Positions 14,604-25,231 of a stretch of DNA of 64,000 nt are shown here, piece after piece. The translations under genes and the position numbers were made by a program. The notes beneath the pieces are model-generated. The model saw only the letters and a list, made by a program, of their open reading frames with translations. It had not been told where the DNA came from and made no database searches. The number at the start of each line of letters is the position of its first letter. Position 1 is the first letter of the stretch. Source of the stretch: Escherichia coli (GTDB taxonomy: Bacteria > Pseudomonadota > Gammaproteobacteria > Enterobacterales > Enterobacteriaceae); the NCBI RefSeq assembly GCF_030013205.1, contig NZ_CP122648.1; one strand, given 5' to 3'.

Positions 14604-14622
14604 GATAGATAACTATCATTTA
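14604..14622. repeat. Putative attL core (gatagataactatcattta)
   Basis: 17/19 identical to 25213-25231. Confidence 0.5.
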
Positions 14623-14691
14623 TATCATTTAGTTAATTAGTCTTTATTTTTCATTATGTTGCAAATAACAACCCCGTCAAAAACAGTGATA

Positions 14692-14714
14692 TTAACTACA
14701 CCATTAACTACACC
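14692..14714. promoter_or_regulatory. Putative integrase arm-type sites (ttaactacaccattaactacacc) followed by cgaacaa repeats
   Basis: Tandem 11-mer direct repeat; a near-identical copy lies at 25069-25091 just upstream of the int start. Confidence 0.45.
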
Positions 14715-15303
14715 GCTTCACGAACAATATCGAACAACCGCGAACAAAGATCAACACGCTTTAATCATTATCATTTTCCGGCTATCCGTCATGAAGCTGG
14801 TGGATGATCTGCGTGGTGATTTCCACCATTCAGAGCAGGGGCGGTCATCATGACCATGCCATAACAAAAACCCCATATTCGTGGTTTTTCTGTGTCGGGG
14901 CTATTCTGCTGTTGCCGTGCTGGTGGATATTCTCCGGTATGCGGCTCCCCATATCGGCATCAGGCCCACCAGCGTGAAGCGTTTTTCATTTTTCGCGGGT
15001 ATAAAAAATCGATGGGGCGGGCAGTCCTGAAGACGTCAGGGTACGGAGATTTGACCCGCCCCTCCCTGTGCATGAGCACAATAAGTAACCGAAGGCGGAA
15101 TTCCGCCCTCGGTACTTACATATGAGAAACGATATTTCTTCCACCGATACCCTTTATTTGGGTATTGCGAGTAAGCCCCAAAATCTGGGTGTTACTCTTA
15201 CTACCCAAACTACGGGTAGTTTCCGTAGTTTCATGGTCGAGTTGCAAATCTGCAACTCACCCACCAGCCAACGCAATTTTGCGTTATCGGGAATATCAGC
15301 AAG

Positions 15304-15591
15304 TTACCGCCGCAGTCGTTCCGGCTTCTTCCACTGGTAAGTATTTTTCGCGCTCTCCCTCCGTTGTTGAGAACGGCGACGGTATGCCAGCAACTCAAGG
15401 ACTCTGGTTCGTATGTTGCGCATATCCACGCCGTTAAGCTCAATACCATCACGGCGCATCACCTCAGCAACAACACGCGCGTAATTTTCAGCGGTGACTG
15501 TATCCGGCTGCGCGGCCTGTTCGTCAGCCAACTGGCTGATTCCACCAGCACAGCGGATTAATCGCAGTATTTCAGATTCGGTCATTATCAT
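15304..15591 (-). CDS. Hypothetical protein (95 aa), island packaging module
   Basis: ORF overlaps the terS-like stop by 4 nt; no recognisable motif. Confidence 0.45.
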   Translation of the reverse strand: MIMTESEILRLIRCAGGISQLADEQAAQPDTVTAENYARVVAEVMRRDGIELNGVDMRNIRTRVLELLAYRRRSQQRRESAKNTYQWKKPERLRR

Positions 15592-16073
15592 GCCTGTTTT
15601 GCGACCTCATTCACTACGTCATTTTTTACCATCCGGCTGATAATCTGATTACACAAATCGTCAATAATTGACTGCACTCTGTTTACTGCCATCGGTTTAA
15701 GCCCGGCATCACGTGCCAGAATATTGGGGAGTTTTGCCAGTTCCTCGCTTACGATTTCCCCCCATATAGCCATCTCTTTTCGCACATCATCGGCGGGTAT
15801 GAGTTGCGCCGTTTCCTGTTCGAACTTGAGGCGTTCACGTTCGGACTGATACCAGGCCTTACGGTCTTGTGGCTCCATTTCTTCCAGTGATGCCGGAACG
15901 GGAAGATCAAGAAAACAGGTCAGAATGTCAGTCACCCGATAGAGTTTCAGCTTGTCATGCCCTCCGGCTGGCTGGATGTTTTTCAGCCTTGCCGCCGCAG
16001 TCTGACGACATATTCCCGCTATCGCCGCCAGTTGATTAATGTTCAGCATCAGATTTTTCAGTTCTCGATCCAT
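15588..16073 (-). CDS. Phage small terminase-like protein (Nu1-like HTH DNA-packaging protein)
   Basis: Start placed at MDRELKNLM (GGAGCGGGT SD); N-terminal HTH LNINQLAAIAGICRQTAAARL; layout resembles lambda Nu1. Confidence 0.55.
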   Translation of the reverse strand: MDRELKNLMLNINQLAAIAGICRQTAAARLKNIQPAGGHDKLKLYRVTDILTCFLDLPVPASLEEMEPQDRKAWYQSERERLKFEQETAQLIPADDVRKEMAIWGEIVSEELAKLPNILARDAGLKPMAVNRVQSIIDDLCNQIISRMVKNDVVNEVAKQA

Positions 16074-16226
16074 ACCCGCTCCAGAATGTTTTAAACATGC
16101 ATCTTGCGAACAACTTTCAGAAGAGGTCAAAAAATGCGCTATATGTTGAGCATAAAACAAGCAAAATTAACATGCCAAAAATAAAAATACTTAAAATTCA
16201 ATACAATATGAAGATGATGATGACGA

Positions 16227-16306
16227 ATGAAAATGCAAAAACTAGCCTTTTTCCGCGCCGCTCCCGCCCCGTGGCAGACCACTCCACCGGGAGGACCCGT
16301 AAAAAA
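16227..16306. repeat. 80 bp conserved element, copy 1 (~92% identical to 18761-18840)
   Basis: atgaaaatgcaaaaac..ccgggaggacccgtaaaaaag; lies between the capsid terminator and terS. Confidence 0.8.
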
Positions 16307-16324
16307 GGCGGCTGTCGCCGCCCT
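16299..16324 (-). terminator. Rho-independent terminator after the protease-capsid gene
   Basis: Minus strand ggcggcgacagccgcc followed by ttttttta. Confidence 0.6.
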
Positions 16325-16329
16325 TGTTG

Positions 16330-22831: not shown

Positions 22832-22873
22832 CCATCACCAGCGCCGTGGTGTGAGTAACTACGGCGCATTGCT

Positions 22874-23062
22874 ATGCAGGACAACACAATGACCGATAAA
22901 GAATTGACCAAAACATTATCACCGGCACGGAAAAGACGGCGCAGAAAGATAGAGCATGAATCAGAAAGATTCGCGCCATGTGCTTTTGCTCTTGAGAAAT
23001 TCCTTAAAGAGCACAGGAAAAAGCTCTCGTTGCAAACCTTGGAACGAACCAAATCTGACTGA
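22874..23062 (+). CDS. Hypothetical basic small protein (62 aa)
   Basis: ORF downstream of the RHH-like gene, same strand; Arg/Lys-rich. Confidence 0.3.
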   Translation: MQDNTMTDKELTKTLSPARKRRRRKIEHESERFAPCAFALEKFLKEHRKKLSLQTLERTKSD

Positions 23063-23176
23063 TCACATTGCCCACCAGCCGCAAATGTGGCATTGTTGGT
23101 GATGCGTTCAAGTTTAGTGTGTATCCATTGGCGACCGCCCCCGGTCGCCTTTGTTTTATATGTCATATGCTCCCCT

Positions 23177-23386
23177 TTACGCTGCCTTGCCTGAATTAAT
23201 GCGATCCCGGCTTTTAACCCATTCCATAACCTCGGACAGCAGCCAACCTACAGAACGACCGCCCAGATTACGGCGTGACGGGAAATTCCCTTTTTTCTCC
23301 AGTTCATAGCGTGTAGTGCGACACACTCCAGTTAACTTACGACATTCATCCTCACGGATTACGCGATCTTCATTTATTTCACGCAT
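23177..23386 (-). CDS. alpA: AlpA-family transcriptional regulator / excisionase-like
   Basis: 69 aa; MerR-like HTH (ECRKLTGVCRTTRYELEKKGNFPSRRNLGGRSVGWLLSEVMEWV). Confidence 0.8.
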   Translation of the reverse strand: MREINEDRVIREDECRKLTGVCRTTRYELEKKGNFPSRRNLGGRSVGWLLSEVMEWVKSRDRINSGKAA

Positions 23387-23805
23387 ACAAAAACCTACAT
23401 AAAAAATTACGTATATAAACTTTTCTCTTAGCTGTAGATATATGAGATCGGATATTACTTAGATTCTTTTTTCACCTCTTAAATTAAAAACACAACCTTG
23501 CTAAAGGCTTTGTTCGCTAAGGTTCGTAGAAGCTCGTTAGTGTTTAAAATCGTGTCACGAGTTTTTAAGCGATGCAACAAAAAATGTCGTTACTTGGCAT
23601 TACGCTTGAATTATCTCATTAAAAACAAATAGATAAACCATCAAGTGTTGGAACAATCAAGAAACAGAGAATAAAAGTTCAGAAGAAGACATTCCAATTT
23701 TTTGATGGTTGACATATATAAAGCGAAGATATTTGCAGATATTTTCCGATATTCTACGATTTATTCACGGCTGTAATCTCTTAAAGAAAAAACAGCCGTA
23801 ATTTG

Positions 23806-25053
23806 TCAAGAATTTTGGGGGTAAATTCGCGGGGTCATAACAACGATTTTTTCATCATTGTTCTGGAGAAGCTCGAGACGGTCTACCCATAGATTAAGAG
23901 CATCACGTTTTGCATCAAGATAACGGGAGTGGTTATAGACTCGTTGCATCCCCGGCATCTGGTGGGCGGTAAGCTGCTCGACAATATGCGGATCCACGCC
24001 TAAATCGTTCAGCATGGTTGTAAATGTGTGCCGGATGTCATGCAACGACCAGGGGGCTTGATTAATGCGTCTGTGTGCCGTTCTTCCGTACTCTGCTACG
24101 GATGATTGCCCTTTCAGTTCTCCAAGCAATAAGCCCGTGTGCCTGTTCTTCTCCACCAGCTTCATGACAAACGGCAAGATCGCTTCCGGTATTGGCCTGA
24201 ATATTGCTACCTTCGTTTTGCTGTGTTCTTTCGGCACAGTCCAGAGCATTTCTTTAAAATCCCATTCCTGAACCTCGGAGCGTCTTAGCTCAGTGGTACG
24301 GCATCCAAAGACAATCAGAAGGCGAATTAAGGCGCTGTAGTACGGCGGGAAAATTTTTTCATCCAGTGCGCGGAGTAGCTCGCCAAGCTCCTTGTTTGTT
24401 AGCACTCGCTCGCTTATTTCTGCTTTTTTTCCCACATCACCTACGACCATATCATCAAGAACGTTACTGACGGCGTAGCGACGTTTACGGCAGTACTTAA
24501 GCGCCTGCTTGCATACCTGCAACAAAAAGCCGGCTGATACCGGATTACGCTTAGCAAGCTGGTCAAAACAGGCCAGCCAGTGGCGTAACTCGCATTTATC
24601 CAGCGGCATAGCACCAATCTGGCTGATTATGTGCTTATTGATCCGGCTTTTCAGTGATTCGTGGTCAGTGCGCTTTTCCTTCGCGTATGACTCAAGCCAG
24701 TAAGTGATCGCGTCCTTAACCGTTACAGGTGCTAACGCTTCCTGCACTGTGTGATTAAGCTCATGGCGTGGATTTTTCCCCTCCGCCAGCCAGGCGCGAC
24801 ACTGTGCCGCTTTTTCTCTGGCTGCTTTCAGGCTCAGATCGGGATAGTTGCCCAGTCTCAGGCGTTCCGGTGATACCTGCCTGCCAGTTCCGGCCCTGTA
24901 AGTGAAATACCAGGTTAACAGGCCATTGGTTGAATGCCTTACGCTAAGGTTGCCACCATCATTAAAAAAGGTGTTTTTTGTGGTTGGTGATCCGCTTAAT
25001 TTTCGTAAAAGAGTGTCGCTAAGTCTATGAATTGCCCTGCTCATGTTTCGCAT
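23806..25053 (-). CDS. int: Tyrosine integrase, P4-type
   Basis: 415 aa; P4-like N-terminal arm-binding domain; catalytic HDIRHTF and YNHSRY motifs. Confidence 0.9.
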   Translation of the reverse strand: MRNMSRAIHRLSDTLLRKLSGSPTTKNTFFNDGGNLSVRHSTNGLLTWYFTYRAGTGRQVSPERLRLGNYPDLSLKAAREKAAQCRAWLAEGKNPRHELNHTVQEALAPVTVKDAITYWLESYAKEKRTDHESLKSRINKHIISQIGAMPLDKCELRHWLACFDQLAKRNPVSAGFLLQVCKQALKYCRKRRYAVSNVLDDMVVGDVGKKAEISERVLTNKELGELLRALDEKIFPPYYSALIRLLIVFGCRTTELRRSEVQEWDFKEMLWTVPKEHSKTKVAIFRPIPEAILPFVMKLVEKNRHTGLLLGELKGQSSVAEYGRTAHRRINQAPWSLHDIRHTFTTMLNDLGVDPHIVEQLTAHQMPGMQRVYNHSRYLDAKRDALNLWVDRLELLQNNDEKIVVMTPRIYPQNS

Positions 25054-25068
25054 TTCCGGTCATCAAAA

Positions 25069-25091
25069 TTAACTACACCATTGACTACACC
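25069..25091. promoter_or_regulatory. Putative integrase arm-type sites (ttaactacaccattgactacacc) in the int promoter region
   Basis: Copy of 14692-14714; followed by cgacgaacaa/gcgaacaa repeats at 25115-25211. Confidence 0.45.
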
Positions 25092-25212
25092 GTGCATCGT
25101 ACAAGGGCAAACAGCGACGAACAAGGGCGAACAAGAAAAACGAAATTTTCCTTTATAATCATAGCAATAAATGAGATAGATACACCACGACGAACACCCG
25201 CGAACACTAACT

Positions 25213-25231
25213 GATAAATAACTATCATCTA
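25213..25231. repeat. Putative attR core (gataaataactatcatcta)
   Basis: Direct repeat of 14604-14622. Confidence 0.5.

Follow-up and report, generated by a model that had tools for sequence, protein, structure and literature searches.

Here we describe an element of 10,609 bp that lies between clpS and yljB/cspD (positions 14603-25232) in a 64,000-nucleotide (nt) stretch of an Escherichia coli chromosome (contig NZ_CP122648.1, assembly GCF_030013205.1), which is called the window below. The analysis confirmed that this 10.6-kb block is a real and intact phage satellite. We consider it very probable that the element belongs to the E. coli family of Gram-negative phage-inducible chromosomal islands (PICIs) that was described in 2018, and that it is a mosaic of two catalogued members. 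Judged from sequence, its integration module and attachment (att) site correspond to those of EcCIIHE3034, and its regulatory, replication and late modules appear to be those of EcCI224. The element is of an already known kind and is ordinary, not a new lineage.

Insertion site and relationship to catalogued islands

The borders of the island were determined by alignment with K-12 MG1655, where the site is empty. Positions 13930-14623 and 25212-27539 of the window are contiguous in K-12 and overlap there by 21 nt. This 21-nt stretch of the clpS-yljB site (attB) occurs once in K-12 and twice in the window, as a direct repeat at 14603-14623 on the clpS side (TGATAGATAACTATCATTTAT) and at 25212-25232 on the yljB/cspD side, and the K-12 site maps to both copies. 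The comparison showed a precise insertion with a 21-nt duplication. An earlier reading of the same DNA, made from the sequence only, had described a block at 14604-25231 between clpS and cspD that is absent from K-12, and its borders agree with the duplication. Within the repeat lies ATAACTATCAT; its reverse complement, ATGATAGTTAT, is the att core published for EcCIIHE3034 and EcCI18098, two PICIs inserted at cspD-clpS (PMC6092414 Table S1, Fillol-Salom et al. 2018). Both flanks consist of core genes, one running from ftsK to clpA and the other from cspD to ybjL, and outside the island the window is core chromosome up to position 62,331.

Just inside the clpS-side end a doubled motif, ATTAACTACACCATTAACTACACC, was found at 14691-14756, and its second copy, ATTAACTACACC, lies at 25068-25133 inside the other end. 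The doubled motif can be written as ATTAACTACACCATT(A/G)ACTACACC at 14691-14714 and 25068-25091. We regard these as probable arm-type sites of the integrase. The motif ATTAACTACACCATTAACTACACC is also the reverse complement of the sequence given as the 'att core' of EcCIDI14 (PMC6092414 Table S1). This points to an arm-binding motif common to the integrases and not to a crossover core.

The gene content of PICIs has been defined as an integrase, an AlpA-type regulator, a primase-replicase, a capsid-morphogenesis gene and a small terminase, and 97% of the PICIs that carry all five core genes ('Type A') come from E. coli (SatelliteFinder paper, PMC10085698). In a reference set of Gram-negative PICIs a four-zone organisation was described, and a major capsid gene was present in 21 of the 29 members (Mageeney et al. 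2023, PMC10111431). All four zones, for integration, regulation, replication and late functions, were present in the window island. It carries int with att repeats, alpA, pri-rep with an origin, a capsid gene, and a small terminase gene (terS) with cos sites, the set that characterises Gram-negative PICIs. Its size lies within the about 10-15 kb of these elements and all its open reading frames (ORFs) were accounted for. Searches with PHROG and NCBIfam profiles and the PGAP annotations gave no portal, large terminase (terL), connector, HNH, tail or lysis gene among them. The portal, head-tail adaptor or connector, TerL and, in Proteobacteria, HNH genes that mark the capsid-forming PICIs (cfPICIs) are therefore missing. 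The PHROG and NCBIfam matches likewise included none of the psu-delta-sid genes or epsilon of P4-like satellites, and the island has no P2-type cos. No repressor, lysis, terL, portal or tail gene of a temperate lambdoid prophage was found within or beside the att repeats. When the whole island was compared with phage genomes by megablast, no phage covered more than 15% of it, so the island is not a phage. Existing tools would call the element a Type A PICI.

The two relatives that carry the classification differ in what they share with the window island. EcCI224 (E. coli Ecol_224, CP018948.1 1961620-1972242; listed in PMC6092414 Table S1) is about 95% identical in nucleotide sequence over 22804-19516 and 18932-14933 of the window. 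These blocks hold the Icd-like gene through the primase to the origin, and cos2, orf69, the capsid fusion gene, cos1, terS and orf95. At the amino acid (aa) level the major capsid protein (MCP) is 95.8%, TerS 98.8% and the primase 99.8% identical. EcCI224 carries the same protease-capsid fusion, the same DUF1441-type terS and both cos sites. It differs in its integrase (66% aa identity), its att site (rcnR-thiM) and an extra DUF6387 gene, and it is without orf81 and the gene for the single-stranded DNA-binding protein (SSB). EcCIIHE3034, on the other hand, has an Int 94.4% identical to that of the window island and the same site, att core, gene order and SSB region, whereas its primase is only 49% identical. 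It also has a capsid gene, terS and several cos sites, but this late module is of the lambda type, with an E-like capsid protein, a D-like decoration protein, the lambda cosN GGGCGGCGACCT and a TerS 35% identical to Nu1. EcCI18098 has the same site and att core as the window island; it is known from the published listing and its sequence is not public.

The sequence-only reading had recognised a phage satellite that is not part of a prophage and this was borne out, with core genes on both flanks. It had also proposed a possibly new or minimal satellite lineage on the premise that classic PICIs have no capsid gene. That premise does not agree with the capsid gene of 21 of the 29 reference islands, and the proposal, which rests on it, is left unsupported. 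In addition, EcCIIHE3034 and EcCI18098 occupy the same att site, and EcCI224 has the same capsid fusion and terS.

Late module with a capsid fusion and two cos sites

The capsid gene (16330-18243, minus strand) codes for a protein of 637 aa that matched the NF045540 profile with 904 bits (cut-off 475). In Pfam searches CLP_protease covered residues 38-175 and Phage_capsid_4 residues 335-634. A ClpP-like prohead protease, a scaffold-like linker and an HK97-type major capsid protein are thus joined in one product, in which the Ser-His-Asp motifs AASMAS, MIHKP and GFAD are kept. The fused protease-capsid gene of the sequence-only reading was in this way upheld by both kinds of profile. Among PICI copies the ratio of nonsynonymous to synonymous substitution rates (dN/dS) was 0.08-0.09 for the fusion gene and 0.1-0.2 for terS. 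Purifying selection on the fusion gene is strong, from which we concluded that it is a working gene and not debris.

The fusion protein has its closest phage homologues, full-length and with 55-59% aa identity, in lambdoid siphoviruses, namely mEp460, mEp213, mEp043, Ayreon, Tritos, HannyBb, cdtI and several Stx phages. The head module of mEp460 has the order terS, terL, W-like adaptor, portal and fusion gene, the last being the sole capsid gene. By its sequence, the late module of the island derives from lambdoid phages of the mEp460/cdtI/HannyBb type. A patch of about 100 nt in the fusion gene (17402-17506, aa ~242-282, AREKLLNELGRESTPSNKN) has 82-92% nucleotide identity to the mEp460 capsid gene; the identity at third codon positions is ~0.9 in the patch versus ~0.5 in the rest of the gene. 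In ~1,300 E. coli genomes, prophage capsid genes are matched by this patch alone. Gene conversion, or a role of the nucleotide sequence itself, might account for it.

The small terminase gene, terS (15588-16073, minus strand), encodes 161 aa and matched Pfam DUF1441 and PHROG 141 ('terminase small subunit'). It had been called Nu1-like, and the assignment as a small terminase stood. TerS of the island is 61-70% identical to TerS of mEp460 and PhiR47_1. Its central stretch RKAWYQSERERLKFEQETAQLIPA is identical to phage TerS, the C-terminal half has diverged, and the last ~11 residues have no counterpart in phages. A search with the TerS sequence against the PDB for Rpp or Nu1 relatives gave nothing significant, so that an Rpp-like mechanism is neither supported nor excluded by the sequence. 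With this search and PADLOC, no Rpp homologue and no defence gene could be recognised. The PADLOC scan of ten island proteins returned no defence system and one insignificant match to BrxA.

Two small genes accompany capsid and terminase, and both had been overlooked earlier. The first, orf69 (18240-18449, minus strand; PHROG 4934, E 5e-30), lies directly upstream of the capsid gene and has positional homologues upstream of the capsid gene in EcCIIHE3034 and in L009, a related PICI described below. The second, orf95 (15304-15585, minus strand; PHROG 1561, E 1e-52), is a conserved late-zone gene of PICIs with homologues in the same position in EcCIIHE3034, EcCI224 and EcCICFT073. The earlier statement that portal, large terminase, head-completion and tail genes are missing from the island agreed with our annotation. 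The reading had also named what would speak against it, failure of the capsid or terS assignments in profile searches or a larger prophage nearby; neither was found, and the neighbours of the island are core genes.

The capsid gene is flanked by two lambda-type cos sites, which the earlier reading had likewise missed. They were detected as a 94-nt direct repeat (16227-16320 and 18761-18854, 88% identical) that aligns base for base with the cos regions of lambda and mEp460. The possibility of a promoter or other regulatory duplication was rejected, because the alignment with lambda identified the repeat as cosQ-cosN. Both copies have cosQ as GGGTCCT and, about 20 nt on, ACGGGGCGGGAGCG(G/T)CGCGG, compared with ACGGGGCGGCGACCTCGCGG in lambda.

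The first site, cos1 (16074-16298, minus strand), comprises cosQ/cosN at 16253-16298 followed by cosB, as aligned with lambda and mEp460, with the cosN 12-mer GGGCGGGAGCGG at ~16269-16258. It precedes terS, as in phage. Its ends match mEp460 and PhiR47_1, but in the middle of its cosB the sequence is the island's own. The second site, cos2 (18601-18832, minus strand), precedes orf69 and the capsid gene and consists of cosQ/cosN at 18787-18832, with cosN GGGCGGGAGCGT at ~18803-18792, and about 190 nt of HannyBb-type cosB. These 190 nt downstream are ~94% identical in nucleotide sequence to the cos/cosB of phage HannyBb, the first eight terS codons of that phage included. The cosQ/cosN architecture of the two sites is identical, whereas their cosB regions differ. 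Behind cos2 the sequence continues into an 8-codon start of a HannyBb-type terS, ATGGAGTTGCCTGTGCAAAACGTG (18601-18640), and then a terminator hairpin at 18574-18558. This terS remnant is a scar of the event that captured cos2. As to the relatives, the same two cos sites are present in EcCI224, there are three in EcCIIHE3034, and of the two in EcCICFT073 one is inverted; multiple cos sites are a trait of the PICI family. Both cos sites of EcCICFT073 are functional by experiment (PMC6092414). A scan for sigma-70 promoters and terminators gave counts at or below the shuffled expectation and was informative only on the terminators that follow ssb and the capsid gene.

The island appears to have spread recently. 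It differs from the copy in strain KGu016 at 4 of 10,630 positions (0.38 per kb), whereas the flanks differ at 8-14 per kb. The island is therefore 20-30 times more similar than its flanks, which indicates horizontal transfer. A query of 11.1 kb, the island with ~0.2 kb of each flank, was covered to at least 80% in 52 of 5,426 complete E. coli genomes, and in the same genomes the PICI-type fusion gene was present in 194; its copies occupy several att sites and accompany different integrases. One copy, L008, has the same late module behind another integrase at a tRNA-Ile site. A further one, L009, agrees with the window island in its replication and late modules (MCP 95.6% and TerS 97.5% aa identity) and in its four zones. 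It sits in terL of an mEp460-like prophage, the helper-embedded configuration of PICIs (PMC10111431), whereas the window island is at a chromosomal att site with a different integrase. The position of L009 physically ties this subtype to its predicted type of helper. In the same pairs of PICI copies, L008 and L009 included, the synonymous divergence (dS) was 0.08-0.26 for the capsid gene and 0.007-0.015 for the primase gene, a 5- to 22-fold ratio that was mostly about 20-fold. The history of the late module is therefore different from that of the replication module, being either older or more recombined.

Given the homology of cos, terS and the capsid gene to mEp460-like phages, and the truncated terS remnant after cos2, the island might be the remnant of a decaying lambdoid prophage that kept an integrase, some replication genes and part of a head module. 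We consider this very improbable. Every gene is intact and subject to purifying selection, the gene order is that of PICIs, with alpA beside an inward-facing int and no early/late prophage layout, and the att duplication is precise. Moreover, near-identical copies are found in strains whose flanks differ 20-30 times more, and the same set of modules recurs at several att sites with different integrases.

Integration, regulatory and replication genes and the surrounding window

At the cspD-side end of the island the gene for a P4-like tyrosine integrase, int (23806-25044, minus strand), showed the Pfam domains Arm-DNA-bind_3 and Phage_integrase. Beside it, on the same strand as int and most island genes, lies the regulator/excisionase gene alpA (23177-23386, minus strand; Pfam Phage_AlpA E 3.5e-16, PHROG 2790). 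Two genes are divergent on the plus strand, a 57-aa hypothetical ORF (22889-23062; PGAP, PHROG 21027) and a YlcI/YnfO family gene (22652-22831; PGAP, PHROG 949). The minus-strand layout described earlier holds for most genes, but these two had been overlooked.

Between alpA and pri-rep, where an operon of three unknown genes had been described, three minus-strand genes were annotated. The first encodes an Icd-like (host cell division inhibitor-like) protein of 67 aa (22258-22461, minus strand; NF033153). The 302-aa ORF that had probably been counted earlier extends this 67-aa gene too far. It is followed by a 106-aa hypothetical protein (21945-22265, minus strand; PHROG 15327, E 1e-71) and a DUF4222 protein (21639-21938, minus strand; PHROG 285), the latter from the PGAP annotation of the KGu016 copy, which is 99.96% identical in nucleotide sequence.

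The pri-rep gene (19825-21642, minus strand) matched Pfam D5_N, DUF5906/SF3 helicase and Pox_D5 as well as PHROG 864 ('DNA primase'); a primase catalytic domain was not detected in it by Pfam. Directly 3' of pri-rep a spacer of 287 nt with 33% GC (19538-19824) holds nine exact copies of the iteron GGTGAACAG in both orientations, and outside this spacer only two copies occur in the whole 64 kb. Mapped PICI origins likewise lie immediately 3' of pri-rep (PMC6092414). By its position and its iterons the spacer is predicted to be the replication origin. Beyond it follow orf81 (19292-19537, minus strand; PHROG 1231, E 8e-49), a conserved hypothetical gene upstream of ssb, and the SSB gene (18873-19295, minus strand; TIGR00621, PHROG 44). 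The earlier assignments of int, alpA, pri-rep, the iteron origin and SSB were all recovered by profile searches and by the iteron count. An Rfam scan of the island (E <= 0.1) gave only a sub-threshold match to the cspA thermoregulator, outside the island, and a spurious long non-coding RNA match.

Outside the island the end of the window, 62332-64000, is absent from KGu016 at the same position. It carries an Ogr-like zinc-finger late regulator (62396-62647, minus strand) and a P2 gpD-like tail protein (62705-63799, minus strand), which identify it as the end of a P2-like prophage running off the window.

A P4-like satellite exploiting a P2-like helper would have in common with the island the P4-type integrase, AlpA, the Icd-like gene and the D5/P4-alpha-like replication protein, and the Ogr-like and gpD-like genes would provide a candidate partner in the same window. 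We find this explanation highly unlikely. No homologue of Psu, Sid, Delta or Epsilon was present among the PHROG or NCBIfam matches, the cos sites are of the lambda type and not of the P2 type, capsid and terS homologues come from lambdoid siphoviruses, and 37 kb with core genes separate the island from the P2-like prophage. A P2-like helper was rejected, because the cos, capsid and terS types of the island are lambdoid, and the P2-like prophage of the window is an unlikely helper.

Two further points were noted in the core chromosome. In the tRNA-Ser(GGA)/RtT-repeat region (~11339-11650) the length differs by ~177 nt from KGu016; tRNA-Ser(GGA) lies at 11339 in the window and at 11162 in the collinear KGu016 locus. 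Between ybjQ and ybjP (~44210-45448) a truncated pentapeptide-repeat pseudogene is annotated by PGAP in the 99.5% identical KGu016 region. K-12 presumably has no pentapeptide-repeat gene between ybjQ and ybjP.

Predicted working and comparison with known satellites

By analogy with EcCICFT073 and the Staphylococcus aureus pathogenicity islands (SaPIs), a working of the island as a PICI can be proposed. A lambdoid helper of the fusion-capsid head type would induce alpA, and Int and AlpA would excise the island. Pri-rep would then fire the iteron origin and, together with the island SSB, produce concatemers. The island TerS would bind the private cosB at cos1 and bring in the large terminase of the helper; alternatively, the terminase of a HannyBb-type helper might recognise cos2 directly. 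The DNA would be cut at cosN, packed into heads on the helper portal and joined to helper tails. Most likely the capsid homologue of the island would co-assemble with, or replace, the capsid protein of the helper and so bias assembly toward the satellite, by redirection of size or by interference as with Ccm in SaPIbov5. This is the least supported step.

The predicted helpers are mEp460/cdtI-like lambdoid phages whose sole capsid gene is the homologous fusion, that is, fusion-capsid lambdoids that share the cosN GGGCGGGAGCG. Four island units would amount to 42.4 kb, or three units of 10.6 kb and the 8.1 kb from cos1 to cos2 to 39.9 kb, and by our own arithmetic either length fits the 44.5-kb helper head. 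The packaging of phage-sized DNA by EcCICFT073 is consistent with island multiples of 40-42 kb, and its transfer depended on alpA, int and pri (PMC6092414).

Several points weigh against this working. When the capsid homologue of EcCICFT073 was deleted, transfer and interference stayed the same, and the packaged DNA was exclusively of phage size (PMC6092414), which leaves the role of the capsid gene unproven. From their native strains, EcCIIHE3034 and EcCI18098 showed poor transfer or none, and the tests revealed no helper (PMC6092414). The C-terminal half of TerS, presumably the part that binds TerL, is unlike every phage TerS found, and direct recruitment of the helper TerL is therefore uncertain. 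The mobility of the island and of EcCI224 as PICIs is read from sequence, with induction, excision and transfer proposed by analogy. Finally, no lambdoid helper prophage is present in the 64-kb window.

The fusion gene and the own packaging signals bear on a further alternative, in which the island would belong to a minimal, uncharacterised 'half capsid-forming' lineage, neither PICI nor cfPICI, that builds its own shell, has its own packaging specificity, and borrows only portal, TerL, connectors and tail. Protease, linker and capsid are indeed joined in one intact product under strong purifying selection, the island has its own TerS and cosB, and we found no experiment on fusion-capsid PICIs, neither on shells nor on dual cos, in the searchable literature. 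Nevertheless, the island shares int, alpA, pri-rep, origin, SSB, synteny and att site with catalogued PICIs, EcCI224, which has the same late module, was already in the reference set of 2018, a capsid gene together with terS is part of the Type A PICI definition, and the analogous capsid gene of EcCICFT073 is dispensable. We consider such a lineage improbable and retain the classification as a PICI of the known family.

Within this family, a tentative and rather doubtful suggestion is that the fusion gene lets a PICI subtype build satellite-specific, possibly smaller shells on the helper portal, and that the two cosB specificities serve two helper lineages. If so, the subtype would be a functional intermediate between classic PICIs and cfPICIs, and the private cos1, read by the island TerS, and the HannyBb-like cos2 would open two helper lineages to one satellite. 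The role of PICI-encoded capsid homologues and the helper range given by dual cos sites are questions already recognised in the field. The role of capsid homologues could best be tested in the fusion subtype, because protease, scaffold and shell there come from a single gene. Taken together, the window island, EcCIIHE3034 and EcCI224 suggest that cos, capsid homologue and terS are exchanged together, as one whole late module that fits the type of helper head, and the element is a clean natural example of modular exchange in PICIs.

Among the characterised systems EcCICFT073 is closest in layout. It has in common with the window island int-alpA, the Icd-like and DUF4222 genes, primase and origin, SSB, a capsid homologue with a small ORF ahead of it, the orf95 homologue and two cos sites, and there AlpA induction and cos packaging by lambdoid helpers were demonstrated. 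It differs in that Rpp, a TerS mimic that complexes the helper TerS, stands in place of TerS, in its lambda E-like capsid protein with a decoration protein, in the inverted second cos and in perC. The cfPICIs (e.g. EcCIEDL933) have the same int-alpA-rep backbone and also their own capsid and terS genes, but in addition they encode portal, head-tail connectors, HNH and TerL and make complete satellite capsids. In SaPIbov5 the Ccm protein is, as in the island, a diverged homologue of the HK97-type capsid protein of the helper and is combined with a helper-type cos, whereas the host is Gram-positive and there is neither a fused protease nor an own TerS. Ccm was shown to redirect assembly to small capsids, and the capsid fusion of the window island may act in a similar way.

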